The position numbers and the translations under genes are program-made. A stretch of 64,000 bases of DNA from Corythoichthys intestinalis. Its lineage: Eukaryota. A model generated the notes under the pieces. That model was not told where the DNA came from and did not search any database. It saw only the letters and a list, made by a program, of their open reading frames with translations. The stretch is from NCBI RefSeq assembly GCF_030265065.1, contig NC_080408.1, positions 22,919,480-22,983,479 on the forward strand, given 5' to 3'. Each line of letters starts with the position of its first letter. The stretch's first letter is position 1. This document shows positions 18,142 through 59,538 of this stretch, piece after piece.

Positions 18142-18162
18142 TTAAAAATATCTAAAAATAAT

Positions 18163-27652: not shown

Positions 27653-27723
27653 GTGAGTTATTTCCTTTGTAATTTTGTTTTCTTATTCTTCCCCATTCTA
27701 ATGGAGCGATGTCCTGATTTGAG

Positions 27724-31742: not shown

Positions 31743-31745
<3 letters not shown>
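30990..31745. mobile_element. Rearranged hAT MITE family 1 copy with inverted duplication at its 5' side, followed by (TA)n
   Basis: ccagcagagggcg... at 31100-31190 is the reverse complement of ccctctgctggc... at 31260-31290. catttaaatctgtctgagcggg is inverted relative to family consensus. Right end cgtttgacagcccta at 31745, then (TA)n. Confidence 0.5.
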
Positions 31746-31780
<35 letters not shown>

Positions 31781-32289: not shown

Positions 32290-32640
32290 CTTACTTCTAC
32301 TCAACTACAATTACTTATACTGTTAGTATTGTACTTATGTGTACTGGTATTGGAGGCATGTGTACTTAAGTGTACTTGTACTATACTTGCGTGTACTTGT
32401 ACTACAGGTACGTGTACTTGCGTGTGCTTGTACCACAAGTACGTGTACTTGCATGTACTTGTACTAAAGGTGCGTCTACTTGCGTGTCCTTGTACTATAC
32501 TTACATGTACTTGCGTGTACTTGCACTACATGTGAAAAATTCCTTTTTTTACTTTCCCATACCAGTAAAAAACATAGGTGTACTTCTGTTTACTTCTACT
32601 ACAAGTAGGTGTACATGCGTGTACTAGGAGTTTACCGACC
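32290..32640. repeat. Minisatellite, ~30-bp unit (GTACTTGCGTGTACTTGTACTACAGGTAC-like) x ~10
   Basis: Visible tandem periodicity of gtacttg / gtgtacttg blocks. Confidence 0.8.
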
Positions 32641-32901
32641 AGCGCTACCGATGCAGTTTCTCCAGAAATTGATTTTTTAGTTCAATTTAATGTTTTCTTT
32701 TGCCTCCCTCAATGAATAGTAGTGAACTTGTAGCATTATTATTATTATTATTTTTTTTAATCATATTCTAATTGAAATACATATGAAAAAGTAACCTCTC
32801 CCCATTTTTTTTTTCAATTGCATTTGTGTCAATTTAAATCCACACCAAGCACAGTACGTATTAGTTGTTGTGTTAACGTTCATTTTTGTCTCCCCCTGCA
32901 G

Positions 32902-32952
32902 GACAAAAACATTTTCAGCAACATGTTCAAGAAGCCTACAGAGGGCGACAAG
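32902..32952 (+). CDS. Repeat-module gene exon 26 (basic module, truncated): DKNIFSNMFKKPTEGDK
   Basis: tccccctgcag| acceptor, aag|gtgcct donor, 51 nt, phase 0. Confidence 0.55.
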
Positions 32953-33115
32953 GTGCCTTCATTGCTTCATTGCTGCTAAGTGATGGTTTTATTAGCTTTT
33001 ATAGTTCCATTGACGTCGATAGACATCCAATTATGAGGCCTTGAATTTAAATTAGTTTGTCACTAGTAGACAACATTGGCAACCAATGACTTAACGATTC
33101 TGATTGATTGTTCAG

Positions 33116-33184
33116 GATGGGGAAGCAAAAAGTGAAGCAGCGGCATTCGGGAGTTCGGAGAATTTGTCCGAAAACGTCCCTAAG
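33116..33184 (+). CDS. Repeat-module gene exon 27 (acidic linker): DGEAKSEAAAFGSSENLSENVPK
   Basis: ttgattgttcag| acceptor, aag|gtatta donor, 69 nt, phase 0. Confidence 0.55.
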
Positions 33185-33257
33185 GTATTAAAAACCATCT
33201 TCATTTTGCATGTCTTTGATTTTTCTTTGGTTTTTGAGCCAAATAGTGTACTTTTAG

Positions 33258-33323
33258 GGCAAAAAAGGAGGTCTGGCCGGCATCTTCAAAAGATCTTACA
33301 GTAACGACAACGAGGTGGATGAG
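33258..33323 (+). CDS. Repeat-module gene exon 28 (basic module variant): GKKGGLAGIFKRSYSNDNEVDE
   Basis: tacttttag| acceptor, gag|gtcagt donor, 66 nt, phase 0. Confidence 0.55.
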
Positions 33324-33402
33324 GTCAGTCTCACTTTTTGTACAATGTGAGCCTTCCGTGTCTGGCCACGCTTTTGTGATCCTAACATATTTTTCCATAT
33401 AG

Positions 33403-33474
33403 GAGAAAGGTGGACTCTTCAGCGGCCTGAAGAAAACCACAACGAAAGCATCTGCAGATGACGAAGCTACAGGG
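33403..33474 (+). CDS. Repeat-module gene exon 29 (basic module): EKGGLFSGLKKTTTKASADDEATG
   Basis: ttttccatatag| acceptor, ggg|gtgaga donor, 72 nt, phase 0. Confidence 0.6.
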
Positions 33475-33562
33475 GTGAGATAGCGGTCATGGCACTCCAA
33501 GTTAAACACATCTTGGCACCTAAATATGACAGGACAGAAAACATCTGTTTTTGTAATCACAG

Positions 33563-33610
33563 GACAAGGAGAAGTCCTCGAGTAACGACAATCTGTCGGA
33601 AAAGCCCAAG
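33563..33610 (+). CDS. Repeat-module gene exon 30 (acidic linker): DKEKSSSNDNLSEKPK
   Basis: tgtaatcacag| acceptor, aag|gtaagg donor, 48 nt, phase 0. Confidence 0.55.
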
Positions 33611-34366
33611 GTAAGGCAAAAGGGAACGCAAAGAGAGAATCAAATATCCGCATCAGAGATGATCATTCTCCCTTAACTTTTTTTTGTTATTTAAAGTATT
33701 TTACAATTTCATTTTACTTTTAATTTGCTTAAAAAAGATTACCATATTTTTGGCACTAAAAATTGCAGTTTTTTTTTTCATAGTTTGACCGTGGGTGCGA
33801 TTTATACTCTGGAGCGATTTATGTGTGAAATTATTCACACATTATTACAGTGATCCCTTGTTTTTCCTGGTTAATGGGGACGAGAACCCGCTGCAATAAG
33901 TGAAAAACCACAAAATAGCTGTTTTTTAAAGTGCCTGTGACACGAAAAAGCATGTTTATTTCATAATACACACGGTATTTTATGCCCCTGAATGATATGG
34001 GCCGCTTGGATGTGTGTGGAAGCGATCGCTATTTTTATTTAGTTTTTTGAATCCCGCGCCATGAAAATGAGTGACTTCCGGCTTCGGTCTTGCATTGAGG
34101 AGGAGGGCGCTGTGACGTGTGCGGTAGAAGACGTCCTCTTCACGCTACAGTGTACTGTTGTGTATGAGAACGAAGGATTCAGCTGATTTTGCGGATTAAT
34201 ACGTTTATTTTTCGCATCACGCCAGCCAAACGGCTGCAGAAAAATCATTCTGTATGAGGGAGAGGCGTATGCGCCTTTTTGGAATTTCAAAAGGTTCCCA
34301 TTCACCGTGGATATTTACTGTGGGACCATTGGACTTACGAGGAATTGAGTAAACATCTTGTTTTGT

Positions 34367-35370
34367 ATTACCGTATTTTTCGGACTATAAGTCGCGGTTT
34401 TTTTCATATTTTGGCTGGGGGTGCGACTTATACTCAGGAGCGACTTATGTGTGGAATTATTAACACATTATGATATAATTTCACATATTATTTTGGTGTT
34501 TTGCAGTGTCACTAATGGTTTTGTAAAGTTGTTAGCATGTTCTTATGCTATAGTTATCTGAATAACTCTTTATAGCTATGGCCACGTTCGCGTTCTGCCT
34601 TTGGCAGTGTATGTTCAATTGTATTATTGACTTTTTTATCTTGAAATGGATGCATTTAGTTTGTGGCGCTTTCACGCCCACGTAAGGGCGCCCTCGCACT
34701 TGTTTATGTGACACGCCAGAAGAAGACGGACAGCTACGTAGCTCTGAGTGAGTGAGGGGCGAGTTAGCGAGAGAGAATAGACGGCTGCGAACCTACTTTC
34801 ATTGTTTATGCTTTTAAATCATCTCTACAGAGGCAACGCCTGCGTGTATCATCTTTTCTGTTGTTGTTGTGTGTTTTCCACCTGCGATCGGACACTTAGA
34901 GCCAGTTGTGTGGTTGTTTGAACGATGTGCTAATGATAGCGAACGCATGCTAACCTGTTACTTATTACTAATAGTACCTAATTATCATTTATTTACGTTG
35001 ATGCGAACCTGTTTTCTATCGAGGACCAAATTGATTCAGCAAATTATACGGACGTCCAGCATTGTCTTTTGGGAGTTCGCTGTATAGCCAGGACAGGCCG
35101 TAGCGTAGGACAGTATATTCACATTTCGTTGTTCATGCACTGTACACTGCACATTTATTTAGCATGTTGTTCTCTATTGTATTTTTATATTAAATTGCCT
35201 TTCAAGATGACATGTCTGTTCTATGTGTTGGATTTTATCAAGTAAATCTCCCCCAAAAATTCGACTTATACTCCGGTGCGACTTGTATATGTTTTTTTTC
35301 TCTTCGTTGGGCATTTTATGGCTGGATCGACTTATACTCAGGAGCGACTTGTAGTCCGAAAAATACGGTA
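34367..35370 (+). mobile_element. TA-target MITE (~1 kb), intact reference copy; TIR TACCGTATTTTTCGGACTATAAGTCGC
   Basis: taccgtatttttcggactataagtcgc...gcgacttgtagtccgaaaaatacggta flanked by TA. Other copies at 27886-30165 (split) and 55632-58792 (with two nested insertions). Partial at 33735-33845. Confidence 0.7.
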
Positions 35371-36913
35371 TGTCAAATACGAATACAGCGATTACAAAGT
35401 AGACACTACAAACTTCCTTTAAATGAAGGACTACTTACGTTTGATCATTGATAGTCATGTAAAAAGCTCTCCTAATGCTCATTAGCAGCAGCATGTTAGC
35501 TGGACAACAACTCCAGCCACCCTCCTCCGGGGAACGAACTGTAAATTGCTCTCCGCCGGGCGGTTTGCCGATCCGCGAAGACAATCGACAACCGGGTCGT
35601 CATGTCAAATAATCCAGGATAGTTATGTGTGATTTTCTGCTTCGAAGACTTTGAAACATCACTCGGTTCGGGTTAGCATGTCGGCTAGCTGTTACGCCTT
35701 CTGGTTTGTTTACATTCTCCGAAGCCGGGGAAGGAAAATGACATATGTCCGATTTAGGTGTCATAAAATATCGTTCAGGAGGTGCGACAGTAAAGGTGAA
35801 GTCGACAGTTTTGACCATTATGGAGTAATTTTGCCATGTCGTCCTGAATAAATGCATTTTTATTATTTCATATTCCATTCATATTCCATGTTATTTGTCA
35901 TGACCATGCCATTTATTTAGCAATTGGGGAAAATACTTGGATAAAAAGAATATCCTGTAAAAATATTGAAGTAAAGAGACAGAAACAATGACATTTTGCC
36001 GCTCTCTTCGTCGCGTTTTCCTCGTTGTGAATAGTTCCCCCTCGACGGGCTAACTGGTCCTTCTCAAGCCATTTATATAGCTATTGGGGAAAAATACTTG
36101 GATAAAAAGAATATCCTGTAAAAATATTGGAGTAGAGAGACTGAAACAATGACATTTTCCGGCTCTCTTCCTCGCGTTTTCCTCGTTCTGAATAATTCCC
36201 CCTCAATGGGCTGAATAGTAAAACCGATGAACCCAGTCTACCGCTGACGTCATCCACCTGTTGGGGACGCTAAAGCCCTATAATGGTTGGCGTGGCTAAC
36301 CGGCAGATTAAAAGACTAATTTCTCGTCATCTGTGCTTTGCTAAATTGTTGTATATAGTCGAATCGTCTCAAAATATGATTCTAATTCACATAATAATGC
36401 CATTTAAGACTTTTTTTCTCGTGTCGTATGCTCTTTAAGCACTTTAAATGTACACCTGTTTGTTTCTGGTGCGCACCAGATGGTTTAAATTTATTTTATT
36501 TCTGTACAATATTTATTTGGGTGCAAAGTTTTTTGTGACATATTTAGTTTAAAATATTTTGTTTTAAATTTATATTTAGAACAAATATTTTCTTTTTATT
36601 ATTTATTCTTTTTACTCGTAAACATTTTAAAATGAACTCTTAGTTTTAACTTGTTTTTCAACATTTTTATTCATAATTTGTAAATATCTTTTAATTAAAT
36701 GAACTTCAAGATGTTTTGTAAAATATTCAGATTTTTGTTACCTTTTCCGTTTCAAATTATAAGGAAAAAAAATCAAGATTTTTTTTTTTTTGCAACAATT
36801 TAAAAATATTACATGTAGACATATTTTTTCAGTATTTTAATGTTTTAACTGCACTGAAAATTTGATTTTTTTTTTTTAAATACTGTTTTTAAAAAAAAAT
36901 CTTTTCCCTCAAG

Positions 36914-36982
36914 GAAAAAAGCATTTTCAGTGGAATGTTCAAGAAAGCACCGAAAGCAGCAGATGAGGCCGCAGTTGATGAG
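36914..36982 (+). CDS. Repeat-module gene exon 31 (basic module): EKSIFSGMFKKAPKAADEAAVDE
   Basis: cttttccctcaag| acceptor, gag|gtaggt donor, 69 nt, phase 0. Confidence 0.6.
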
Positions 36983-37093
36983 GTAGGTGACCGACTACCC
37001 AAGAGAGAATTTTTTAAAAATCAAATTATTATTAGTAGTATTAGTAGTGGTAGCATCCATGCCGTTTCACTGTAATTATTTTTTTCTGAGCAG

Positions 37094-37168
37094 GAGTCCA
37101 ACAGCGGACAGGACAAGAACTTATTATCTGCAAGCAATGAAAACCTGACCGAAGAAAACGCTCCAAAA
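37094..37168 (+). CDS. Repeat-module gene exon 32 (acidic linker): ESNSGQDKNLLSASNENLTEENAPK
   Basis: tttttctgagcag| acceptor, aaa|gtacaa donor, 75 nt, phase 0. Confidence 0.55.
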
Positions 37169-37237
37169 GTACAAATGTAGTTGACAGATGTTGCTAGGAT
37201 TATTTTCCACTTTTCTAACACAATATTTTGTTACCAG

Positions 37238-37309
37238 GAAAAGACTGGAGGTCTGGCAGGAATGTTCAAAAAGTCACCCAAACCGGCGCCACGCTCCGTC
37301 GTCAACAAG
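37238..37309 (+). CDS. Repeat-module gene exon 33 (basic module): EKTGGLAGMFKKSPKPAPRSVVNK
   Basis: ttttgttaccag| acceptor, aag|gtgact donor, 72 nt, phase 0. Confidence 0.6.
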
Positions 37310-37402
37310 GTGACTTTGACGCCCAGTGTTCTCATTCTTTCTTTTTTTTTTTTTTTTTTTTAATGAGAAAATGGTGGAAACTGACATCAACTTTGTTTTT
37401 AG

Positions 37403-37441
37403 GATCCTCTCAGTGATGCCAAGGATGCAGAAAGTGACAAG
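37403..37441 (+). CDS. Repeat-module gene exon 34: DPLSDAKDAESDK
   Basis: ctttgtttttag| acceptor, aag|gtaaat donor, 39 nt, phase 0. Confidence 0.45.
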
Positions 37442-37663
37442 GTAAATTACCGGAGTAGAGGCGATAGGAGGAAAATCTACAATCGTCAACAAATACAACA
37501 ATAGCCATTTACTGTATTATTTTTGTATTTCACAATAGCCTTTGTCAATTTTTGTCATTTTAAGCAAACTTCCCTTTTTATTTTAAATAACATTTGGAAC
37601 AATTATTCTCTTTGGGTTTCATTAAGTCTTTATTATTGGTCTTTTTTATTTTTTTTCCCTAAG

Positions 37664-37726
37664 GACGACTTGTCAGGTGACGAACTATCAGGTGATGCTG
37701 TCATTCTTGAAGCTGCCACTGCAAAA
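37664..37726 (+). CDS. Repeat-module gene exon 35: DDLSGDELSGDAVILEAATAK
   Basis: ttttttccctaag| acceptor, aaa|gtgagt donor, 63 nt, phase 0. Confidence 0.5.
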
Positions 37727-37857
37727 GTGAGTACACGATACACTATGTACATACATATACTAGTACAGTATGTCTTAAGTATGCCTTTCAGCGTCAGGAA
37801 AAAAAACAAAATGTCAGAACATACTGAACCGCATTACTGCATGTTCATGTTGAGCAG

Positions 37858-37917
37858 GAGAAAAAGGGAGGCTTCGCCGGAATGTTCAAGAGGACGCCCA
37901 AAACCGCTGACAAACAG
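37858..37917 (+). CDS. Repeat-module gene exon 36 (basic module): EKKGGFAGMFKRTPKTADKQ
   Basis: catgttgagcag| acceptor, cag|gttagg donor, 60 nt, phase 0. Confidence 0.6.
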
Positions 37918-38866
37918 GTTAGGATACTTTTCGACTCACGAGGAAAGACTAGCCAACATGTGCTAATCAGGGCTGAAAGTGGCTAGAATTTCTTTCCGGA
38001 GCTCCCTGGCATAAAGGTTGCCACGGAGCCAGAATTTTGTTGTTGTTTTGTGTTCTAACTAAAACCATCGAAATGCAGCACACAAAAAAACACAACAGGT
38101 TTTGCGCATGCATTCGGCTACTGCTATAAACTTTCTGTAATTTTATGTAAAACCTAAAAAAAAAAAAGATTGTTTTTATTGAGTCATTTATTACCTTTTC
38201 ATTGCCTCAAAATACTCTTTGCGTGTGTTTCCATCTCGTACTTTTAAGCATTGTGTTTTCTTGTGGTAGCTTTAAAGCAGAGTGTTGATCTGTGGCCCAC
38301 ATTAGTCACATAGCATGTTTAAAGCACCTATACTTGATAATACAGTGATCCTTATTTTTCGCGGGACCAGAACCCGCTGCGATAAGTGATAAACCGCAGA
38401 GTAGTGCAAACCCCCCCCCCCCCCGGTCTTTTTTTTTTTTTTTTTTTTGCTGTATAATCAATGTATTCAGATTTAGCATTGGGAAGATATACAGTACATA
38501 TAAGACATGTTTTTTCACTTTTTCCCCCCAAAAGTATAATTTTAAAAAAACTTATGTACATATTTTAATAAATGTTTTTTAACTCATTCACTTCCAGCCA
38601 TTTTTAACGGTGCAACCCCATTCGCTCCCGGCCGTTTTACTGGATTTTGACTGATTTTGCAAGGCCCCCAGAAAATTCTGTTCTATTGCTATATAAACAT
38701 AGAACCCACCAAAAGAAAGATTACACTCTGTTCTTTCAGCAGGAAAAAAAAGTTAGTTCATATCTTTTTCCATTCTTTAGAAATCAGCATTAGAAAATAG
38801 CTTAGTTTGAGCAATTTTCCAATTTCTGATGAAAAAAACAGAGAAATTTAGCTTTTTGTGAAAACA

Positions 38867-40249
38867 TACAGTGCCCTCCCGTAATTATTGGATTTATAAT
38901 AATTATGAGTTTTTTAGCTTCTAATAATTTTTTTTTCTAAATAATATGGGATCTTAATGGAAAAAAGAGAAAAATCCAACCTTCAATACAAGTGCATTTA
39001 TTCAGTGGGGAAAAAAATCCCACATAAAGAAATAATTATTTGACATCAAATAATGTGTATCACAATTATTAGCACCCCTGGTGTTAATACTTTGTACAAC
39101 CCCCTTGTCCCAACAAAACAGCACCTAATCTTCTCCTATATTGTCTTGCTGAAAGACCCAGTGACGACCCATCTTCATCTTTCGGGCAGAGGGCAACAGA
39201 TTTTGATTTAAAATGTCCTGGTATTTCAAAGCATTCATGATGCCATGCACCCTAACAAGGTTCCCAGGGCCTTTGGAAGTGAAACAGCCCCACAGCATCA
39301 CTGACCCACCCCCATACTTCACAGTGGGTATGAGGTGCTTTTCAGCATGCGCATCTTTCGTGGCACGCCAGACCCACTTAGAGTGTTTGTTGCCAAAAAG
39401 CTCAATCTTGGTCTCATCTGACCAAAGCACACGGTCCCAGTTGAAGCCCCAATACCGCTTGGCGATTTCCAGACGTTCGCGTTTATGATTGTGAGTGAGG
39501 AAAGGTTTTCTCCGTGCATGCCTCCCAAACAGCTTGTTGGCGTGTAGACAGCACCTCATACCCACTGGGAAGTATGGGGGTGGGTCAGTGATGCTGTGGG
39601 GCTGTTTCGCTTCCAAAGGCCCTTGTTAGGGTGCATGGCATCATGAATGCTTTGAAATACCAGGACATTTTAAATCAAAATCTGTTGCCCTCTGCCCGAA
39701 AGCTGAAGATGGGTCGTCACTGGGTCTTTCAGCAAGACAATGACCCTAAACATATGGCCAAATCTACACAGAAATGGTTCACCAGACACAAAATCAAGCT
39801 CCTCCCATGGCCATCTCAGTTCCCAAACCTCAACCCCATTGAAAACCTGTGGGGTGAGGGAAGAGGAGAGTACAGAGAGAGGACCCAGGTCTCTGGATGA
39901 TTTAGAGATATTCTGCAAAGAGGAATGGCTGAAGATCCCTCTTTCTGTCTTTTCCCATCTTGTGAAACATTATAGGAGAAGATTAGGTGCTGTTTTGTTG
40001 GCAAAAGGGGGTAGTACAAAGTATTAACACCAGGGGTGCTAATAATTGTGACACACATTATTTGATGTCAAATAATTATTTCTTTATGTGGGATTTTTTT
40101 CCCTACTGAATAAATGCACTTGTATTGAAGGTTGGATTTTTCTCTTTTTCTCCATTAAGGTCCCATATTATTTAGAACAAGAAAAAAAAATAGTAGAAGC
40201 TAAAAAACACATAATTATTATAAATCCAATAATTATGGAGGGCACTGTA
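38867..40249 (+). mobile_element. Tc1-like DNA transposon (TIR TACAGTGCCCTCC…ATAATTATTGG), internally palindromic and non-functional
   Basis: ~190-bp TIRs at both ends ending cactgta. Interior holds two head-to-head transposase C-terminal fragments, - strand 39125-39616 and + strand 39631-39900 ([49 protein letters not shown]...). 39061-39337 is the reverse complement of 39553-39830. No intact ORF. Confidence 0.75.
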
Positions 40250-40858
40250 ACTTTGACTTTAACACAGCTATTTTATGCTTTAGTTACTTACATCCTAAAC
40301 ATCTGAATAATGTTTTCCTTTTATAAAATAACATAAACAACAAGACAAATAGTGCTTTTGATAGCAAAGTAACTATTTGTTTACACATAACTGAGGGATG
40401 ACGCTGTTGTGGCCGCGATAGCCGGGGTAAACTTTTCCCTCATCGCCGCCTGTCTCTGCTCGGCGAGCAGCACGGACTCAACGGCATCGTCCGCTGCACT
40501 GGTGGTCCGGTTCGTTCCGCTCGGTTGTCTGCCGCCTGGCATCCTGGACGTCCATTCGGTCATCTTCCGCGGGCGCCCCGGCCGTGCGGCCAGCCGTTCG
40601 TCCTGTTGAATCGGATTGCAGGTCTTACCAAATGCGCTACTGCCCTTCAGTGGCCAGTTTTATTGCTTTAAAATGGATTTCCAGCATTGTGCTTTGGAGC
40701 TAAGTTGAATCAGAACCCAGAGATGTCTCTTGTAGCACATCTCGCCGGTGTAGGACATTTTGTCAGAACACTCGCCCCGAATCTTATGCCGGAACGACGT
40801 ACCAGACCGTTCTGCACCACTTTCACCCCTAGTGCTAATACACTCCTGATACTTCCAG

Positions 40859-40942
40859 GACAAGGACGACGACAAGGATGACATGGCGCCACCTAAGGGC
40901 GGAGGGCTGAGACGCAGGAAGACCATCAAAAAGAAAAGACGA
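40859..40942 (+). CDS. Repeat-module gene exon 37 (acidic then polybasic): DKDDDKDDMAPPKGGGLRRRKTIKKKRR
   Basis: atacttccag| acceptor, cga|gtcagc donor, 84 nt, phase 0. Confidence 0.5.
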
Positions 40943-41014
40943 GTCAGCACTTTGTTTTGTTAATTACCGATCTGCATAATGTCTGAGTGTCATTTAACTT
41001 TGATCCTTCTCCAG

Positions 41015-41071
41015 ATCGTGTCCTTCAGAATCAAGACGACTCTTCCCAAAATGCCAAAGCTAAACGCGCAG
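41015..41071 (+). CDS. Repeat-module gene exon 38: IVSFRIKTTLPKMPKLNAQ (with the preceding exon gives KKKRRIVSFRI, an RVxF-like motif)
   Basis: ccttctccag| acceptor, cag|gtaaac donor, 57 nt, phase 0. Confidence 0.5.
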
Positions 41072-41316
41072 GTAAACCTCGAGCAAGTTCCACTTAGCCA
41101 CATGCAATTTACTTAGACTTAGCTTGTCTATCAAAAGTAGATCCACAAAAAAAACAAAAAAAAAAAAATCTCAAGTAGCCGTCTTGAAAAAGTTTAGAAG
41201 TCTGTTTCCTCAAGTCTTTCAAAAATGAGCTCAAATTATTACGTCAGTTGGGTAATTTAAAATAACTGATGTCCACATACAGTATGTGGATGCCATGTCT
41301 CAATTATATATATACA

Positions 41317-42292
41317 GTATATGGCAGAAAACACTCAGGTGACTTGACGTTCCTCTCTGAAACCCCCAATTTGGCCAAATTTCAAAATTGTCCCGTATGC
41401 ATGTGAGATACATCTTTGGAAAGCTTAAAATATCAATTCTCTGGGGAAAGAAAATTTTTGAACAGGAGGGCATTAAAAAAAAAAATAATTAAAACCTAAC
41501 TCGAGGTGAGAGCATGAGAGAGCATAATTAAAGACCATGATTATAACGAGATATTATTGCGTACTTACCTTGTTTCGATCAAAAAAACTCTGTGTAGCAT
41601 GTATCACCGAGTGCTAAGACACTGCTGTGAATAGCCACAGCCAGACTTTTTGGGTATTTTGTGGGTGAAACGCGGTAATATAACAAGGGTCGGAATGCAG
41701 AAATCGCAGACATCAAGGAATGGTTAAGATTTTCTTTTTCAAATATTTACAGTTTTAAATGTTTTTTTTTTTCCTTGTTTGGATCGATTATCATCTAAAA
41801 TATCAGGGGAAATGCAATAGTAACAGTACAATTAAGCAATAGTTATGAGGTAGATATCCGTGACTTTTTTAGAGATGCCATTTTTTCATTGGGACATAAT
41901 TTGTTTAAAAGTTTAAAATATGTGAGTAAATAATTTTATAAAGTTTTTTTTTGTTTTTTGTTTTTAAACTAAATATTAGACATCAATTAATGATTCTAAG
42001 CTAAAAACGATAGTCATTTCAAATAATGAATATAATTACTTACCTTCTTTTTATGGCTAGGTTGAAACAAAAGCGTTTGCGCGGTTTCTGTAAACGGGGT
42101 CTCCAGGGTAAAACGGGCAAATTAAAAATAGTTCAGGGGCTTAATGCGCCATGAAACTGCTATGGCAGCATATCGACATATTGTTCTATCAAACACAGCA
42201 GTTCTTTTGGCTTAAAATACAGCAGTTTATTTTAAAGAGGGGTGCAAGAGCAGAAACTGCTTTTTCAGCCTTGTCTGTGTTTTCCGCTATAT
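41317..42292 (+). mobile_element. Non-autonomous ~1-kb element with CATATGGCGGAAAACAC-type TIR, copy B
   Basis: tatatggcagaaaacactcaggtgacttgacg...cagccttgtctgtgttttccgctatat. Collinear with 8286-9274 over the full length. Confidence 0.6.
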
Positions 42293-43003
42293 ATATATAT
42301 AAAATTATTATGAATCGTTATTTATATATGTATTATGACTAAATAAAATTATAAACTAATAAAATGTTAATAAAAACAAAAAATGAATCGAAACAAAAAT
42401 ATACCCTGGTTATGACACCCAACAACACTTAAGTCGATAAATTATGAATCCTATTATTCAATGACATTTTTTTTAAATTCCCTTTTTTGTTTTTAATAAA
42501 CAATTAAAATAAATAGAAATTTTAAATGAGTAAAGAGAATAATTTTATTTTTTTATTAGTTATTTTAAAATTAAAAAATAGAATTGAGAGTAGGGTTTTA
42601 TTCCCCACTTTTTCTTTAAATAAATATAAAAATAAAACTAAGTTTAATCGTTTTCAAAATAACAAAATAAGAGAATATTTACTATTAACTCACTGCCCGC
42701 CATTGACAACAATAGACATCCAATTTATTTGAACTGGAAGGACTGACTGTAAATGCTTACCTTAATTGTGATTAACGGCGCTAGACGTCCAATTTATTTT
42801 GATTGGGTGGGGCAAATGAATGAATGTTAATTCGCCCCCTCCCAGTTAAAATAAATTGGCCGTCTAGTGCCGTCGATGGCAGCCAACATTGCTCTATAAG
42901 GGTTTGAAGACAGACTTCTATAGATTTTGTCTGATTTCTATCAAATTTGAGCAATAAAAAGTACAATTCTTGAGTGATACTTGATCCCTTTTTGCTCGCC
43001 CAG

Positions 43004-43066
43004 GCCCGAGAAAAGATGCCCCTCATTGAAGAGAGTGTGGAGATGCAGGAGATAACCCCGCCACAG
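43004..43066 (+). CDS. Repeat-module gene exon 39: AREKMPLIEESVEMQEITPPQ
   Basis: ttttgctcgcccag| acceptor, cag|gtatgt donor, 63 nt, phase 0. Confidence 0.5.
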
Positions 43067-43197
43067 GTATGTTTTTCTTAATCCTCATCAATCCTTCCAT
43101 CTTGCTAAAGTTAGGTTTCATACGATGTAGGTTAGGAGGGTGTGTGATGTTTCCAAGCTCAGTGATGTTATCACTTTCATGTTGTGATTTGTTTCAG

Positions 43198-43272
43198 GAG
43201 AGCACTGTGGAGATCCTGCCGGTTGAGATGGCAGCATACCCATCCAGTGGAAACCCCCTGGAATCAGAGGAG
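43198..43272 (+). CDS. Repeat-module gene exon 40: ESTVEILPVEMAAYPSSGNPLESEE
   Basis: gtgatttgtttcag| acceptor, gag|gtgtgt donor, 75 nt, phase 0. Confidence 0.5.
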
Positions 43273-43539
43273 GTGTGTGTCCATATGCAATATCATATCA
43301 TAAGTAGAGGTCGACTTGTATGGGACAAAGGTTGATGTCGATTAAAAAAAAAAAAAAAATCAGCCGAATGCCGATGTATAAAGTAAAAATTTCGTAAGCA
43401 AATATTTGAGTCCGATAGACTTTTATAAAGCACATTGATTATGAAAGACAATTGAAGCACTCGTTATATAAATGTATATATTGGAAGTATTTTTTTTCTT
43501 CTGTTGCTTGCTTTTGTAATACTGGCCTCTAGGTGGTGC

Positions 43540-43860
43540 AAAATCACAATTAACAAGGATCATCATTAAAACAGTGAATATAAGTTATCCTATAATATCG
43601 GCTTATATTGGCCGATCTTCAAAAAGTCCATATAACTGCCTGTTATATCAACTGGCCAATATATCTGGCAACCTTCATTAGAAAGATCATCACCCAAACA
43701 GTGGATATCAGTTATCTTATTATATTGGCTGATATCGACCGATCTCCTACAAAGACCATATACCGGCCCGATATATCGGTCGACTTAATAGGAAAAATCA
43801 TCACCATAACAGTGAACAAAGTTATCCTATTATATTTGCCGATCTTGAAAAAGTCCATGT
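43540..43860. repeat. Tandem repeat, ~95-bp unit x ~3.3
   Basis: Reiterated atcatcacc.aaacagtg.ata..agttatcctattatat.ggc.gatct.caaaaagtccatata.c blocks. Confidence 0.7.
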
Positions 43861-44269
43861 AGCTTTCTTTCTTTTCGTTCATATATCTTTCGAAACTCTA
43901 GTTTGAAAAAAGACTTTTTGAACACCAAATTAATTTTTATACCGAAAATAATTACAGTACATCCGAAACAAAAGATTATAACAATATATTTGAGAGAAAA
44001 GTATGTTATTTTGCCTCATTCAAATCATAATATCTGAACATTTAAATATGTAAACTTAAGTGCAATCACATTCGTAAATGAATGGCTTCTGGTTTTTGAA
44101 ATGTAAATAAACCAATCTATTGTGATAAAACAACAAAATTGCTATAACTGCATTAACCATCAAAGTGAAGTCTAACTGTAACTGTAGTCTTGAAACAAAT
44201 CTGAATAAGGAAAAACATTGCAATAAAATAATGCAAACTGGTTAAACTTGAGAGTAGCTGAGATCTGTC

Positions 44270-44400
44270 ATGACAGAACATCGCTTCAGTGATATCTGGC
44301 AACATCTAGCGGAGTGAATGGGAGAGTAGCTGAGATCTGTCATGACAGAACATCACTTCAATGATATCTGGCGCCATCTAGCGTCGTGAATGGGTATAAT
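44270..44400. repeat. Tandem duplication, ~58-bp unit x2 (gagagtagctgagatctgtcatgacagaacatc.cttcaatgatatctggc..catctagcg..gtgaatgg)
   Basis: Two near-identical adjacent units seen directly. Confidence 0.7.
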
Positions 44401-45128
44401 GTCTAGACCGCAAATATAAGACAACCTCCTCTTTTTCAGTCTTATTTCAATGCAAAAAACACCGTCTCATATTCGGGCCAATACGGTAATACGGCAGATA
44501 TCCAGTGGTACCTCTAGATACGAAAAATTTATTTTACGAAGTTTTTTTTTTTTTGCTTCATTTTAAGAAAATTTATTCATCATACAAAAGATAACACATA
44601 CTATGTTATAGATAATTCCTGCTCGCAGCAATGTAATATTTTAACTACGTTAGACTGTAAATGTAAACGAAATATACATACCACAATGTGCTACACAATG
44701 CTCATGTACAGTATCTGAAACACAAGAAGAATATAACTTATAACTTTAGCAAGGCACATTCAGCGAGATGAAATGCCAAGCAATGGCTGCCGAAGTTGGC
44801 TTGTCTTTTAGTATTTGCCGAAGTTAGCTTGTCTTTTAGCTCTCTCTATTTGCTACGAGCTCAAGTAGTCATGTAAAAACATCTGTAGAATGAGCTGGAA
44901 CGTAACAAACTAGTTACACTTAAACGCCACTAGGGGCGAAAAAGCATCACAAATAAAGACTGTGGTGTTCTGAGCTTGGAAAAAATTGGACGATTGACAT
45001 CGCGAAAAAAATCCTGATATGAAAGCCACTCCGGAACAAATTAATTTTGTATCTTGAAGGTACCACTGTATTGGTTGACCTTTAATCATAAGGTCAAAGA
45101 TGAGTGTCATGTATTTTTTTCCTTGAAG

Positions 45129-45168
45129 GAAAATGACGGCCTATTGGAATGGTGGAATAATGTCGAAG
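45129..45168 (+). CDS. Repeat-module gene exon 41: ENDGLLEWWNNVE (ends in phase 1)
   Basis: tttttttccttgaag| acceptor, gaag|gtgagt donor, 40 nt. Confidence 0.5.
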
Positions 45169-45257
45169 GTGAGTGTAATGTCTAGACATTTTAATTTTTT
45201 TTTTGTTTCCTCATGCAAATGTCTGATGTGGTTGGTCTTCACGTCCTGTTTCTGTAG

Positions 45258-45410
45258 GCTGGGCTGAATGGAACGAGACAGCCAATTTTCAAGAAGATGA
45301 GGAGGGAATGTACGCGCATGCTTTATTTATTTTCTTTGTTATGGATTGTGACATCTTGATAAATAAATGCTTGCTTGTAAGAAGGAAAGATGAATGGATG
45401 AGTGATAGCT
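45258..45410 (+). CDS. Repeat-module gene candidate terminal exon: (G)WAEWNETANFQEDEEGM... Reading ends at TGA ~45408-45410, but an AATAAA lies at 45362 inside this frame, so the true coding end or a further splice (possible donor AAT|gtacgc at 45315/45316) is unresolved.
   Basis: tgtttctgtag| acceptor. Phase-1 continuation gives GWAEWNETANFQEDEEGM, then low-complexity AT-rich codons. aataaa at 45362-45367. Confidence 0.35.
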
Positions 45411-46250: not shown

Positions 46251-46333
46251 AGTCATCGAGAATCTGTTGAATGCATTGCATGCATATCTAATGAAGTGTC
46301 CAGCAAACATCTGTAATATTTGCATCTGCAGGG

Positions 46334-48297
46334 CAATGGAGGAGGCAGCCGACCGTGTTTACATGGCTGCACGACTGTTTGTGCACCTCTTCAACCAGCG
46401 GGGGGCGTCCTTGCAACAGTGTATCCTGGAGCTGCTGGCCATCGCCGATGCCGCTGACCAGTTCCACAAGAAGACTGTATCAGCGGCCGTGGGTGGTGGC
46501 GTGGCGAGCGTGGCCGGCAGCCTGACCACCATCACGGGGCTCATCCTGGCACCGTTCACCTTCGGCGCCTCCATCATTGTCACAGCGGTGGGCATCGGCG
46601 TGGCCACAGCGGGAAGCATCACCTCGGCCACCGCCAACATCACTGACACTGTCCATTCTAACATGGACCGCAAGAAAGTGGAGAAGATGATCCAAGACTA
46701 TCAGGAGAGGATCAAAGATATCCGGGACTGCATGGATTTTGTGCAGGAGGGTATAGATACCCTACAGGAATGGGACTTTGAGAAATACTCGCAGAGTGCC
46801 GCGAAGAAGGCCCTGAATCACAACATCAAGCACGTGGTAAAGGAAGGCGGCCGGGCAGGGAAAGCCCTCATGATAAACACTGACAAGCTCATCAGCACCG
46901 TCCAAGTTCTGGGTGCGGGAGCTGGAGCAGCCAAAGCCGCCCAGGCCATAAGTGTCACCACAGGTGTCATGTCGGCGCTCTTCCTTGCTCTCGATGTCTT
47001 CTTCCTCGCCAAAGACTCCCACGAGTTGCGCAAAGGTGCCAAGACCAAGTTCGCCTCCAAGATAAGGGACGTGTGCAAAGATCTGCAGGATGGTCTTCTG
47101 GAGCTCAACAAGGTCAAGACCCAACTACAGAAAACCATGGACGGCATTGAAGTGGAAGAGTATGAGGAGATCGAGGAAGTGGAGGTGGAAGTGGATGACG
47201 ACCTGGAGTCTGATCCCAAGAAGCTGGCTGAGCTAGAGCAAGAGCTGGACCTCATGGAAGAGAAATTAGACAAGAGGATTGAGGATGGCAAAAATGCAGA
47301 AAAGGAAAGCGAATCCAAGGAGAAGAAGGAAGGGACAAGGAAGAAAGACAAACTGGACAAGGAAACAGAGAACCAGATCACAGCCTGGAAGGGAAAAAAG
47401 GAAAAAGAGGAAACATCTTCACTTAAAAAAGAGAAGGAGAAACCCAAAGAGAAGGACAATGTTGGGAAGGATCCAAATGAAAGAACAGTAGAATCCAGAA
47501 AGAAGTCAGAATATGAGAAAACTACCGAAGACAGATTGAAAGAAGCACCTACCAAAACACAAGACTCCCTTAGGATGCCAGAACATGACCGACGCGACAG
47601 AGAAAGTGAAGGGACGGAACTACGTAGAGATACAGGGGATTCTAAAAGGAAGCCAGGACATGAGAGAAGCCACCAAGAAGAAAGAATGACGACTGGGAAT
47701 CCTGATGGAAGAGCTAATATTGGTGAGCGGGCCAATCATGAGAGAGGAAGCAATAGATACGCCAAAAATAAAAGCAGCCTGACAGACAAGATTCGAGCAA
47801 AAGACTCGAGGACAGAAACGGGAAGTAGAGAAGAACAAGATTGGGAGAGGTCAATGATGAGGGACTCTCACGAAAGAAGTGACGACTGGAGGGGTTCGCA
47901 TCGGAGTCACAAATCGAGCCGAAGGAACTATTCAGATGATAAGATAGCCAGCCAGAAGAGTTACCACAGGAGGTCGACGGGAGAGGTGGAAGCAGAAGTG
48001 CGTGGCGAGGACAAACGAGTGAGCCGAATCGAGAGCGCCCGAAAGAAGTTTGAAAGAGATTTTGAGGACGTGGAGGAGCATCGAGGGAGCACGGAGCATC
48101 ATAGGAGAGATAGTGACAGAGTCAAGACAGGAGGCGATCGGGAGAGGAGAGGAAGTGATCGGGAAAGGCGAGAAAGTCACAGAGACACGACAATAAGTGA
48201 TCGGGAGAGGAGAGAAAGTGACAGAGAGCGGAAACATAGTCGTGGAAGTTCTCGCCATCATTCCAGCATCCTCATGGATGACGGACTCTACATTTAG
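46334..48297 (+). CDS. Apolipoprotein L (APOL)-like protein with long charged C-terminal extension, main or terminal coding exon (stop 48295-48297)
   Basis: ORF 46267-48297. Acceptor tgcatctgcag|G (46332/46333), phase-2 entry identical to gene 1. Strong-Kozak ATG at 46336 (gcaATGG). N-terminal ~270 aa align with gene 1 and the APOL core (…LAIADAADQFHKKTVSAAVGGGVASVAGSLTTITGLILAPFTFGASIIVTAVGIGVATAGS…LALDVFFLAKDSHELRKGAKTKFASKIRDV…LQDGLLELN). Followed by ~370 aa E/K/R/D/S-rich low complexity with RD/RE/RS repeats (…DRERRGSDRERRESHRDTTISDRERRESDRERKHSRGSS…). Confidence 0.8.
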
Positions 48298-52451: not shown

Positions 52452-54810
52452 TCATTGGAATTCAACCCCCTTGTCCCGTTGCCGTTCCCGCTCGCTTTCA
52501 CGCTCCTTTTCTCGCCTCAAAGTAGCTATAGCGACAGCCTCGTCGAAGCACATGCTGAGCGGGCTGTTTCGGGGCGAGTCCTTGCCGCAGGTGGCACCGA
52601 CATCATCTGGCGTGTCGGCATCCCTCCTCTCTCGCTGTTGTTGCTGTTGTCGAAGACTCCGGGCAACCAATTTACAGTGTTGGGGCTTGGGTGGGACAAT
52701 TGGTACCGCTTTCACTTGGTAAACGTTGGGCAATTTTGAGATAACCAGCTTCCTTCCTACTCCTCGATCCTCAAACCTCATACCTTCTCTGTACTCCAGA
52801 ATATCAGATCTGACATCTTTCTGGGGTGTATCTCGAAGACTTGGTGTCACTATCACTTCTTCACAATTGGGTTTGTTCTCGATGGGTACCAACTTTTCGC
52901 TTAGGGTACATTCTTCTTTGGGTAACTTTAGTCCTTGCTCTTCAAACTTTACATTTTCTTGGGACTCCGCAACATATTTAAGGGGTGTGTCTCCACGACT
53001 TGGTGTCACTGTCACTTCCTCACAAATGAGTTTGTTTTCTTCACGTACCAACTTTTCCTCAACAGTAAATTCTGGTTCACACCACTTTGGTTCTTGCTCC
53101 TCAGTCCTTGCAGCTTCTTCAAACTTGGGAAAATCCTCTTTCAGGGGTTCATCGCCAATACTTAGTGACACTGTCAGTTCCCCACAAATGGGTTTGTCAT
53201 TTTCAGTCTCCAAATTCTCCTGAAGAGTAACTTCCGGGTCACACCTCTCTGATCCTTGCTCCTCAACCTTCACAGCAAATCCGGACCGCGCAACATCAGA
53301 ACTGACAACTTTCAGGGTTGCATCTCTAAAACTCGGTGTAACTGTCACTTCCTCACAAATGGGCTTTTCTTCTTCACGCACAAACGTTTTCTTAATAATA
53401 AAATCTGATTCACACTTCTCTGGTCCTTGCTCCTCAATGCTCATGGCTTCTCCAATCTCTGGAACTTCCGCCCTGACCTCTTTCAGGGGTATATCTCTAA
53501 GACTTGGCGTCACTATCACTTCCTCACAAATTGGTTTGTCTTCTTCAGGCACCAAATTTTCCTTGACAGGAACATCTTGTTCACATCTGTCTGGAACTTG
53601 TTCATCAAGCTTCCTGTCTTCTCCGGACAGTGGGATGTCAGACCTGATCTCTCTCAGTGGTATATCTCTAAGGCTTGACTTTGCTGTCACTTCTTCACCA
53701 ACAGGTTTTTCATCTTCAGTCAACAAATTCTCCTGAACAGTAGCTTCTGGTTCGCACTTCTCTGGTCCTTGCTCCTCAAACGTCACAGCTTCTCCAGCCC
53801 CCGAAACAATAGGCCTGAGAAGTTTCAGGGGTGTATCTATAAGACTTGGTGTCACTGTCAGTTCCTCACTAATAGGTTTCACTTCTATAGACACAAATCT
53901 TTCCTTAACAGTAACATCTAGTTCACACCTTTCTAGTTCTTGCTCCTCAACCCTCATGGCTTCTCCAGAATCTTGAATGTCAGACCTGACCTCTTTCAGG
54001 GATCTATCTCGAAGAGTTGGTGTCACGGACATTTCCTTGCGAAAGGGTTTGTCTTCTTCAGGCACAAGCTTTTCCCGAACAGTACCTTCTTGTTCACATC
54101 TCTCTGGACCTTTCTCGTCAAGACTCACACCTTCTCTAGACTCTGATTCGTCAGACCTGACCTTTTTCAGAGGTGTATCTTCAAGACTTGGGGTCACTTC
54201 CACTTCCACACAAGTTGGTGCTTCGGGCACCAACATTTTTACAACCTCAGCTACTTGGTCAAATCTCTCTGTAGAGTTCATCTCCTTCACCTCAGTCTTC
54301 TGTCCTGGAATTGTCTCTATCTTGTTGGTCTCTTCGCTGTATTCACCCTCCACTGTCTTTCTTTCTTCTTCCTCAATCAGTTCACAAACGACCTCCTCAA
54401 GCTCCTTCCAGACTATCATGAAGTCTTCCTCCTGCGTCTTTCCTGATCTCAGTTCCTTGTTCTCTTCTTTTGAGAGATTTTTAGGCAAATTTCCTATAGT
54501 TTCAGGATTCATATCCTCTGTGTTTTTGCCATCTTCTCCCTCATCCGTGTCCTGTTTAACAGATGCTGTCACCTCTTCAGAAACATCTAGGAGCTCCTCT
54601 GCTTCGGATGTTTCTTTCTGAGCACAACCAGAAACAGAGTAGTGAAGGACCTCTTCTTCCTGTCTTACGTTACTAACTGCTACATCATCAGTGGTGTCAA
54701 CACTTGATTCATCTGTGTGCTCTTGCATTGCTAAGTCTAGACATTGGTTTGATGGCATTTCTAAGGAGAAAGGTTCAGGCCCAGCTTCCTTCATTATGAG
54801 ATCTTCATTC
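52452..54810 (-). CDS. Glu-rich protein with nine tandem ~57-aa repeats (consensus VTPSLRDTPLKEVRSDI..SGEAM.VEEQGPEKCEPE.TV.ENLVPEEDKPICEEV); large coding exon, stop at 52452-52454
   Basis: 780-codon ORF on the - strand. Upstream acceptor (- strand ttttctgtgcag|G at 54811/54810), so ATG 54794 may be the start (with spliced 5' UTR) or internal. Repeat period 171 nt. Two conserved Cys per repeat (RCE… and KPICEEV). The + strand ORFs over the same region (52726-53223, 53359-53736, 53977-54621) are shadow frames. Confidence 0.65.
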
Positions 54811-58938: not shown

Positions 58939-59538
58939 TCACCTTAGACTCTTGTCCTCTTGGTCCTTAAGTCTTTCTTCGTTTTGTGGTATTGTGTTTT
59001 CGCCTACGTCTGCGTCATCCTGGCTCTTATCGCTATTATTTTGTTGTTTGGCCGTACAGCATTCAGGGTTAAATTCCATTTCTTCAGATGACTCGTCCAC
59101 GGAAACGTTTTCAGCAGTACTAGCTGGAACATTGTCCGGCTCAAGATCACTTGGGCTGCTTAGAAAGAAGTCCGCAGGAAGGCTTGTAGCAAGCAAGCTG
59201 CTTTCTTCATCACTGCTATAGTAGTGGACAGCATCGTCATCTTCCGTGTTATCTCCGTCATCAGTGCAACACTCCCCTGGTTCACAAACAGGTGAGGTCA
59301 TGTAAGGCAAGCTTAGGGATTTTCCATGCCGTTCATTCGCATCAACACTGGGCGGCCGGTGGGACTTGAGCTTGTTTTGATCGTTTGTGCTGGGGCTGGT
59401 GCTCAGGCTCGTGTTGGGCCCCTCGGTGTAAGGCAATGGTTGCTCCATGAGTTCGTACTCGTCGTCGGAATAACCGGGAGGTTCAACAGAGAACTCGTTC
59501 ATTTGAGAAGAAGAATCCGGCAAGAAGTGGACAGGGAT
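58939..59538 (-). CDS. Terminal coding exon of an unidentified - strand gene: acidic/Ser-rich C-terminal region with PPGY motif, stop at 58939-58941
   Basis: - strand acceptor tttgtctttttag|ATCCCTG (59540/59538). Frame IPVHFLPDSSSQMNEFSVEPPGYSDDEYELMEQPLPYTEGPNTS…SDEESSLLATSLPADFF…EERLKDQEDKSLR*. Upstream exons would lie beyond the palindromic Tc1-like element or outside the window. Confidence 0.45.
   Translation of the reverse strand: MPVHFLPDSSSQMNEFSVEPPGYSDDEYELMEQPLPYTEGPNTSLSTSPSTNDQNKLKSHRPPSVDANERHGKSLSLPYMTSPVCEPGECCTDDGDNTEDDDAVHYYSSDEESSLLATSLPADFFLSSPSDLEPDNVPASTAENVSVDESSEEMEFNPECCTAKQQNNSDKSQDDADVGENTIPQNEERLKDQEDKSLR

Follow-up and report, generated by a model that had tools for sequence, protein, structure and literature searches.

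The long, charged tail that follows the ApoL core in this stretch of Corythoichthys intestinalis DNA (64,000 nucleotides, hereafter the window) is, on comparative sequence evidence, real protein-coding sequence and a normal, conserved part of the teleost apold1a ortholog group. The explanation that we favor for the whole, with a probability of roughly 0.85, is that the tail constitutes the 3' two-thirds of the apold1a terminal exon, a genuine and largely disordered extension that would act as a cytoplasmic tether bearing short motifs. The locus is thus a further ortholog of an already annotated teleost gene, and only its tail is undescribed in the searchable literature, where we found no paper mentioning apold1a or its tail architecture.

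Gene identity and exon structure

The features of the window that bear on gene identity are as follows.

740..1708, + strand: teleost apol1 (apolipoprotein L, 1), main coding exon; the "paralog 1" of a preliminary description, a 322-aa ORF (Pfam ApoL, E=6e-36)
7156..45310, + strand: upstream small exons of apold1a (approximate tblastn mapping)
46330-46331, + strand: splice acceptor AG of the terminal exon (sequence)
46332..48297, + strand: terminal exon of apold1a, comprising core, whole tail and stop (sequence, ORF, tblastn)
46366..47109, + strand: ApoL domain, Pfam PF05461 (E=4.8e-32, 112 bits)

The open-reading-frame list contains an ORF at 46267..48297 (+), and the exon product is 653 aa long, terminating in a TAG at 48295-48297; syngnathid apold1a proteins align to 46333..48294 in one piece by tblastn. 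The preliminary description, made from the sequence alone, took this to be an APOL-like protein, and the Pfam scan agrees, with the ApoL profile matched at aa 11-258 (profile positions 49-297 of 298) far above the cut-off of 25.9 bits. Hydrophobic hairpin segment(s) with membrane-insertion potential are a major characteristic of APOLs (PMC11726835). Here, too, hydrophobic segments with predicted membrane insertion are seen, and only at aa ~48-100 and ~201-227 (Kyte-Doolittle, 19-aa windows, ≥1.4).

The top matches to the exon product are syngnathid apold1a models (66-72% identity over 99-100% of the exon, 844-870 bits), after which come hundreds of teleost apold1a/b matches, those to apold1b scoring lower, with 75-78% identity in the core; overall, the core alone is 75-80% identical to apold1b and to cypriniform apold1a. 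The name apold1a denotes apolipoprotein L domain containing 1a, and si:rp71-1g18.13 is an earlier zebrafish clone name for it. An N-terminal extension in which GGxFxGMFKKxPK motifs recur is encoded by the upstream exons. By tblastn, these exons are collinear with Dunckerocampus apold1a (1467 aa), the 5'-most matches being weak (E 0.003-0.1), while core and tail share one exon at the Syngnathoides and two Stigmatopora loci as well.

The short neighbor, which the preliminary description correctly called a 322-aa paralog, is 44% identical to the apold1a core. It is also 91% identical to Stigmatopora argus apol1, which lies on the same contig as S. argus apold1a. In the window, apol1 sits upstream of apold1a on the same strand, and apol1/apold1a locus tags are adjacent in Albula, Etheostoma, Cyprinus, Leuciscus and Triplophysa; by this gene order, apol1 is a conserved tandem neighbor of apold1a. 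Assignment of the present gene draws on similarity, gene structure, synteny and terminal motif: its closest similarity, its exon structure, its apol1 synteny and its long tail ending in [DE]GLxI all mark it as what, by sequence, is the syngnathid ortholog of teleost apold1a.

Coding status and anatomy of the tail

The string ...LQDGLLELNK ends at 47112, and 394 further codons stay open before the TAG. That the tail continues in the same exon, with neither stop nor splice, had been recognized in the preliminary description, as had its great length, although the estimate of ~370 aa falls slightly short of the 394 aa measured from LLELNK. The tail is rich in E/R/K/S/D, and the strings quoted in that description (EEYEEIEEVEVEVDDD, a K/E-rich block, and DRERRGSDRERRESHRD...SDRERRESDRERKHSRGSSRHHSS) are present in frame.

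The same description allowed that the tail might be a mere run-on, in which case this purine-rich, low-complexity DNA, or a stop-free 3' UTR, would go untranslated and the protein would end, or be spliced, near the core. The base composition of the tail (A.394, C.164, G.313, T.129) does lend itself to such a proposal, because 71% A+G and 13% T make for fewer stop codons, and a 305-aa ORF runs antisense. Even so, ~20 stops are expected from this composition, and the calculated probability that 394 codons remain open is ~1e-9, so that the open frame exceeds what chance would provide; there are 0 stops in frame, as opposed to 11 and 35 in the other two + frames. The frame and an identical DDGLYI-stop end are kept, with the tail open in the same exon, in four syngnathid genomes (the window, Syngnathoides and two Stigmatopora species) despite 27 gap runs, all 27 of which are multiples of 3 in an independent nucleotide alignment.

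Codon-level comparison of syngnathid pairs gives dN/dS of 0.004-0.06 for the ApoL core, 0.008-0.055 for the proximal tail (first 55 codons) and 0.26-0.42 for the distal tail, values of 0.3-0.4 being also compatible with weak constraint on composition alone; the distal ratio is <1 in all 2000 bootstraps for each pair. From Osmerus and Lota through percomorphs, the protein keeps its C-terminal motif. Among the annotated isoforms of the 7 species examined, 39 of 40 differ only N-terminally and keep the entire tail, and none is a short-tail form. The orthologs, which keep a conserved tail in the same terminal exon, and the dN/dS comparison of tail with core thus favor a real tail and refute the run-on; the comparative data, 3n indels included, effectively dispose of the untranslated reading, to which we would assign a very small probability.

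The antisense ORF, at 46818..47735 (-) and S/L/F-rich, was also weighed but set aside as an incidental result of the sense strand being poor in T, since the minus frames each contain 8-11 stops across the tail and all comparative signal lies in the sense frame.

The coding tail can be divided as follows.

47113..47214, + strand: proximal tail VKTQLQKTMDGIEVEEYEEIEEVEVEVDDDLES, acidic and highly conserved (alignments; dN/dS as above)
47215..47316, + strand: conserved amphipathic helix DPKKLAELEQELDLMEEKLDKRIEDG..., aa 294-327 (AF2 and invariant columns)
47317..47535, + strand: K/E-rich block, aa 328-400, with no predicted secondary structure (alignment, AF2, composition)
47536..48267, + strand: R/S/D/E/H-rich block, aa 401-644, predicted disordered (orthologs, AF2 pLDDT <50 nearly throughout, dN/dS 0.26-0.42)
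48013-48057, + strand: conserved island KRVSRIESARKKFER within the R/S/D/E/H-rich block (conservation against non-syngnathid orthologs)
48103..48221, + strand: in-frame tandem repeat, 21 bp x about 4 (63 bp x 1.9), of DRERR(G/E)S units (Tandem Repeats Finder)
48268..48297, + strand: conserved C-terminus ILMDDGLYI, then TAG (identical DDGLYI-stop in four syngnathid loci)

The proximal tail is common to apold1b and cypriniform apold1a, and the conserved helix (DPKKLAELEQELDLMEEKLDK), in which L297 and L300 are invariant across 39 sequences, is also the endpoint of apold1b. AF2, run on the 39-sequence alignment, predicts this helix (294-327) as the only one in the tail and as the most confident part of the model (10-residue block mean pLDDT 57-84), followed by no secondary structure over 328-653, with pLDDT <50 nearly throughout. 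Because the model is poor even in the core (mean pLDDT 46.5, pTM 0.30), only its pattern of secondary structure and confidence was used, and the assignment of disorder rests on low confidence together with composition; on that basis, the tail beyond the helix is probably disordered.

The ~325 aa distal to the helix are fast-evolving, indel-prone and of mixed charge, K/E-rich first and then R/S/D/E-rich. Repeat number in the K/E-rich block varies among syngnathids, with KEKREKEETSSLQ units expanded in Stigmatopora. Over the tail as a whole, charged residues make up a fraction of 0.51, there is no hydrophobic segment, and nine [RK][RK]x[ST] sites occur. Short conserved islands are found as well, among them KRGSRIESARRKFER and ERRGSDRE; most teleosts have a single copy of the latter motif, Syngnathoides has two or three and the present gene about four, and the DRERRES repeats are, as these alignments have it, a local in-frame 21-bp amplification of the conserved ERRGSDRE island.

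Likeness to RS and RD domains

The arginine-rich dipeptides had been likened in the preliminary description to the RS or RD domains of splicing and nuclear-speckle proteins, and hence the gene to a novel fusion of such a domain with an APOL core. A working criterion for an RS domain is about 40% RS/SR over about 50 aa or more. In the tail, RS/SR dipeptide residues amount to 6% overall and to no more than 24% in any 50-aa window. The Pfam scan of the exon product returns no RRM or other RNA-binding domain, and a phmmer search with the tail alone against 1.84 billion representatives yields no splicing or speckle protein among its matches. Lacking RS/SR density, an RRM and homology to splicing factors, the tail, judged by sequence, is not an RS domain, and its low RS content and absent homology led us to reject a role in the nucleus or in splicing.

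What recommends a functional RS/RD-type domain, by which the protein or a released C-terminal fragment would act in speckles, splicing or RNA binding, is the stretch at aa 590-640, where 52% of residues fall in R[DE]/[DE]R dipeptides. It is reminiscent of the RD/RE stretches found in U1-70K or NELF-E and of arginine-enriched mixed-charge domains. The stretch, however, is a recent 21-bp expansion, not conserved beyond close relatives and absent in Stigmatopora and most teleosts, and it belongs to a protein with hydrophobic membrane segments. In view of these points and of the low RS content, the missing RNA-binding domains and the absent splicing homologs, we regard such a function as highly improbable.

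The observation that drew attention to this locus is confirmed, while its interpretation mostly fails: the gene is neither a new pore-forming/RS fusion nor an annotation run-on, and a false lead is removed.

Distribution, proposed role and known systems

Long tails of 300-550 aa, encoded in the same terminal exon, are present in apold1a models across a range that runs from smelt, salmonids and relatives of cod up to percomorphs. Of 86 long-tail models, 73 end in hydrophobic-x-Ile, and 58 of those in [DE]GLxI. On the other hand, apold1b ends about 37-40 aa past the core, at ...KKLxELEE, and cypriniform apold1a 55-90 aa past it; cypriniform apold1a and all apold1b are without the long tail, the R-rich region and the DGLxI terminus, so these lineages and paralogs manage without any function that the tail may have. 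The extension had been suggested to be lineage-specific, which holds in that it is confined to the teleost apold1a lineage; within that lineage, it is old and widespread, and what is local is confined to the 21-bp DRERRES repeat expansion. Nor is the architecture a new one, as had been supposed, since dozens of teleost genomes have it under the annotation apold1a, although we found no paper devoted to it.

The tail-only phmmer search gave 29 matches (clusters), each starting from tail residue 1 beside an ApoL core and mostly confined to the first ~115-150 tail residues. Fifteen of the 29 name their source, and all 15 are teleost. No non-apold1 protein matches the tail among the 1.84 billion representatives, and no match in this search can be named as non-teleost, the match lists being saturated with teleosts. 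A foreign source for the tail, for instance an exon captured from some other family, was discarded, as all 29 tail matches directly follow an ApoL core. In a separate search, a profile of the last 190 aa, built from 15 orthologs and run against a 5.8-billion-protein set, gave one marginal 154-aa match and failed to recover its own members; low-complexity word selection or bias correction is suspected, and the search is uninformative.

It might be argued that the tail, though translated, is distal to the helix no more than a functionless compositional spacer that lengthens and shortens by replication slippage and whose islands have no partners. Its length is indeed variable (about 260-555 aa), repeat expansion is frequent, dN/dS reaches 0.4, cypriniform apold1a and apold1b do without it, and a tail query finds only those 29 clusters, mostly via its beginning. 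Against this, [DE]GLxI, ERRGSDRE and ESARRKFER persist across long-diverged orders while the intervening sequence is unalignable, a pattern typical of short linear motifs under selection, and we consider the spacer proposal unlikely. In the syngnathid sequences, several islands that percomorphs conserve, RGVRDWRAEM among them, are degenerate.

Returning to the reading of a motif-bearing tether, the tail is most likely cytoplasmic, given a core with the only two hydrophobic segments and a half-charged tail that has none. It would most likely serve as a flexible tether on which short linear motifs are displayed, namely putative [RK][RK]xS sites of the basophilic-kinase type and a hydrophobic-x-hydrophobic C-terminus like that of class II PDZ ligands; through these motifs, the ApoL core in the membrane would be linked to scaffolds in the cytoplasm. 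The C-terminal L-Y-I-COOH has the class II PDZ-type pattern, making PDZ binding a putative property.

A more specific and distinctly tentative version would have the DGL-x-Ile terminus dock the ApoL hairpin on PDZ scaffolds at junctions or granules, with the [RK][RK]xS sites under a basophilic kinase of PKA/PKG/Akt type, and teleost apold1a, at 1,100-1,600 aa, would then be a much larger relative of mammalian APOLD1. Were this so, the tail in fish would show in cis which partners the short mammalian protein has to recruit in trans, and the origin of APOLD1-type genes would move well before the amniotes, to which an evolutionary study traces APOLD1 (PMC8557400), and no further. For APOL/APOLD1 specialists, the gene offers very large, apparently disordered N- and C-terminal extensions with a conserved terminal motif, and the conserved tail motifs give inexpensive, testable points of entry into the cell biology of APOLD1, which is poorly understood.

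Among known systems, the RS domains of SR proteins and the RD/RE domains of U1-70K and NELF-E offer compositional likeness only, in a ~50-aa stretch of R alternating with D/E/S; the apold1a tail has far too low an RS content, no RRM and no detectable sequence relationship to them, and its R-rich stretch, unlike theirs, is a recent repeat expansion on a membrane protein. Mammalian APOLD1 (VERGE, an endothelial early-response gene), from which the fish genes take their names, likewise has an ApoL core with hydrophobic hairpin segments. The human protein, at 279 aa, is not known to carry an N-terminal repeat region (~860 aa in fish) or a disordered C-terminal extension (~330 aa). One study places mammalian APOLD1 at contacts between endothelial cells and at Weibel-Palade bodies, with effects on cytoskeletal architecture (PMC9973481; for localization, see also the review PMC11726835), which the proposed cytoplasmic tether would fit.

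Closer still, teleost apold1b and cypriniform apold1a have in common with the present gene the core, the acidic stretch and the beginning of the DPKKLAELEE helix. The closest counterpart is long-tailed teleost apold1a itself (RefSeq/Ensembl; Stigmatopora nigra, Syngnathoides biaculeatus, Dunckerocampus dactyliophorus, Osmerus eperlanus), which has core and tail in the same exon and shares the islands, the DGLYI C-terminus, the multi-exon N-terminal repeat region and the apol1 neighbor. The differences are only in lineage-level details: the KEKREKEETSSLQ expansion of Stigmatopora is absent from the window, which carries about four DRERRxS units against one in most species.

The apold1a gene and its surroundings

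Beyond …LQDGLLELNK (ending at 47112), the ApoL core of apold1a is followed in the same exon by 394 open codons that run to a TAG at 48295-48297. The preliminary description had likened part of this C-terminal tail to RS or RD domains, and had suggested that it could be a lineage-specific exon extension or a run-on into low-complexity DNA. The features concerned are as follows.

740..1708, + strand: apol1 ("apolipoprotein L, 1"), 322-aa ORF that matches the ApoL domain (E=6e-36), on the strand of apold1a and upstream of it
~7156..45310, + strand: ~20 small upstream exons of apold1a coding for an ~860-aa N-terminal extension (tblastn, collinear with a 1,467-aa Dunckerocampus protein)
46267..48297, + strand: ORF of 676 codons (ORF scan)
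46330-46331, + strand: AG of the splice acceptor …tgcatctgcAG/G, which sets the true exon start at 46332
46332..48297, + strand: apold1a terminal exon

The terminal exon codes for 653 aa, reading from 46336 (residue numbers refer to this product), and a Pfam scan places ApoL (PF05461) at aa 11-258 (E=4.8e-32, 112 bits against a cut-off of 25.9). The tail proceeds from acidic through K/E-rich to R-rich strings, exactly as first quoted, with a composition of E 16.5%, R 13.5%, K 11.4%, S 10.2% and D 9.9%; half of its residues are charged, and its net charge is -6. By hydropathy scan, the only hydrophobic segments of the exon product lie at aa ~48-100 and ~201-227, the highest 19-residue window in the tail being -0.47.

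A search with the exon product returned 475 proteins at E<=1e-5, the best three from syngnathid fishes: Stigmatopora argus (66% identity, 99% coverage), S. nigra (annotated "apold1a", 72% identity) and Syngnathoides biaculeatus (71% identity, 100% coverage). Next come teleost proteins named apold1a, si:rp71-1g18.13 or apold1b, with others under such misleading automatic names as "myosin-1", "myb-like protein X" and "neurofilament medium polypeptide"; nearly all teleost matches below the top three are 550-1,130 aa long. The architecture, which had been thought undescribed, is already in public annotation for many teleosts.

In tblastn, the Dunckerocampus dactyliophorus protein follows the small exons collinearly and then the terminal exon (46333..48294), from which we take the gene to span ~41 kb, the matches farthest upstream being weak (E 0.003-0.1). 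The N-terminal extension is built of repeated KEKxGxFxGMFKKxPK-type and GGxFxGMFKKxPK-type motifs, and inclusion of its small exons varies between annotated apold1a isoforms of other fish. The predicted product is thus ordered as long N-terminal repeat region, ApoL core and tail. The locus passed each test that was run of membership in the ApoL family and the teleost apold1a group, whether by profile match, closest similarity, exon layout, synteny or terminal motif. The upstream gene, 44% identical to apold1a in the core and 91% identical to S. argus apol1, is by similarity the ortholog of teleost apol1. In S. argus apol1 and apold1a share one contig, and their locus tags are adjacent in Albula, Etheostoma, Cyprinus, Leuciscus and Triplophysa, which indicates a tandem pair kept across teleosts.

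Three further ORFs lie on the minus strand.

39125..39616, - strand: 163-aa ORF with a weak Tc3-type transposase HTH match (PF01498, E=1.8e-6, under the Pfam cut-off), probably a decayed Tc1/mariner element within an apold1a intron
52452..54794, - strand: 780-aa ORF of ~ten degenerate ~70-aa repeats (…VTPSLRDTPLKEVRSD…EEQGPEKCE…), no Pfam match
58939..59523, - strand: 194-aa acidic, serine-rich ORF, no Pfam match

Because the gene downstream of apold1a in Syngnathoides, on the opposite strand, encodes a 1,358-aa RhoGAP-domain protein, the second of these may be a large exon of a RhoGAP-type neighbor, and the third may be a further exon of that same gene.

Coding evidence for the tail and selection on it

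Over the length of the tail, stops interrupt the remaining forward frames 11 and 35 times and the three reverse frames 8-11 times; base composition predicts ~20, and the calculated probability of a chance open frame is near 1e-9. The long open tail is thereby confirmed as first observed. In the retrieved genomic loci of the three syngnathid orthologs, core and tail again form one open exon, each ending …SS[IV]L[MR]DDGLYI-stop, so that none of these relatives has a stop directly after LLELNK. When the four syngnathid tails were aligned independently as nucleotides with MAFFT, 27 gap runs (3-189 nt) appeared, all of them divisible by three in length. Nei-Gojobori dN/dS separates the tail into two parts.

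ApoL core: 0.004-0.06
First 55 tail codons (VKTQLQ…EEKLDKR): 0.008-0.055
Remaining ~300 tail codons: 0.26-0.42

For the distal part, bootstrap 95% intervals lie inside 0.17-0.63 and none of 2,000 replicates per pair reached 1. These values and the gap lengths refute a run-on into low-complexity DNA. Among annotated isoforms from seven other teleosts, 39 of 40 vary solely in the N-terminal part, with identical tail length. Such sequence comparisons show the tail to be coding sequence under purifying selection. That selection bears very strongly on the acidic stretch and helix at the proximal end and weakly, though genuinely, on the remainder, which has short conserved islands and a conserved free C-terminus.

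Conserved islands and expanding repeats

The segment VKTQLQKTMDGIEVEEYEE…ESDPKKLAELEQELDLLEEKLDKK is almost invariant across 39 aligned sequences, L297 and L300 being invariant. It is inside this segment, ~37-40 aa past the core at …KKLxELEE, that apold1b ends; cypriniform apold1a ends 55-90 aa past the core, whereas percomorph, gadiform (Lota, Merluccius), osmerid, salmonid and galaxiid apold1a run on for ~260-555 aa. Most of this long part is unalignable between orders, the islands kept being KKDKEtEN, (R)DWRAE, SHRS, EKRGSRxESARRxFERAGGEE, ERRGSDRE…HS..GSR and the terminus L..DGLxI. The ending [DE]GLxI is present in 58 of 86 long-tail models, and 15 more, mostly salmonid (QFYI), Albula (PLSI) and Aplochiton (LSII), have a different hydrophobic-x-I; among the other 13, several are labelled partial. 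AlphaFold2 applied to the alignment produced a model of low confidence (mean pLDDT 46.5). Its firmest feature is a helix spanning aa 294-327 (10-residue block means 57-84), and aa 328-653 have no secondary structure, with pLDDT <50 nearly throughout.

Tandem Repeats Finder reports two repeats in the R-rich part.

48103-48221: 63-bp unit, 1.9 copies
48136-48221: 21-bp unit, 4.1 copies, nested in the former

The 21-bp unit encodes an in-frame DRERR(G/E)S heptad. In the alignments the ERRGSDRE unit is single in Stigmatopora and in most teleosts; Syngnathoides has two or three and the window ~four. The repeat is therefore one of the conserved islands, recently expanded in slippage-type fashion. 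The K/E-rich part in Stigmatopora (S. argus terminal exon ~aa 330-440) has its own lineage-specific tandem expansion, of KEKREKE(E/K)T(S/P)SLQ, with ~7 units in S. argus, ~3 in S. nigra and one in the window; separate parts of the tail thus expand independently by lineage.

The likeness to RS domains did not survive analysis. RS/SR dipeptides make up 6% of tail residues and peak at 24% in a 50-aa window; those of the R[DE]/[DE]R kind reach 52% at aa 590-640. The Pfam scan found no RRM in the exon product. Run in full over 1.84 billion cluster representatives, a phmmer search with the 395-aa tail matched only 29 at E<=1e-3, all of these matches beginning at tail residue 1, directly after an ApoL core; the newly found matches bearing a source name are all teleost (15/15). 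The locus failed the tests of RS-domain membership, and capture of a foreign domain is likewise unsupported, every phmmer match adjoining an ApoL core. The interpretation in the preliminary description is partly supported: a real tail sharing its exon with an ApoL core stands, and RS likeness, a new architecture and a run-on do not.

A possible role, and APOLD1 in other vertebrates

Because the core has two hydrophobic hairpin-type segments and the termini are extremely hydrophilic, it is probable that both terminal extensions lie on the cytoplasmic side. If so, the distal tail could act as a flexible mixed-charge tether whose length drifts as repeats come and go but whose short linear motifs are kept. 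Its islands contain [RK][RK]xS patterns (KRVS, RRGS and RRES twice) that would fit basophilic kinases, and the L-x-I-COOH end matches the class II PDZ ligand pattern. Mammalian APOLD1 has been placed at endothelial cell contacts and in Weibel-Palade bodies, and losing it affects junctions and cytoskeletal architecture (PMC9973481; PMC11726835); this would make scaffold docking a reasonable function for the tail. A strong functional claim is countered by cypriniform apold1a and by apold1b, which do without the long tail, and by distal dN/dS of up to 0.4. We would give about one chance in five to the proposal that the tail serves as a cytoplasmic tether, regulated by phosphorylation and docking on PDZ domains, that could reveal APOLD1's partners.

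A full-text literature search for "apold1a" found no paper, and the searchable papers yielded no treatment of the orthology of teleost apold1a and apold1b to tetrapod APOLD1. As a 2021 evolutionary study also traced APOLD1 only to the amniote ancestor ~300 Ma ago (PMC8557400), the fish apold1a extensions, annotated as they are, have apparently gone undescribed, and this is the small residual interest of the locus. In contrast to that dating, teleost genomes carry both apold1a and apold1b, with ApoL cores that are 75-90% conserved.
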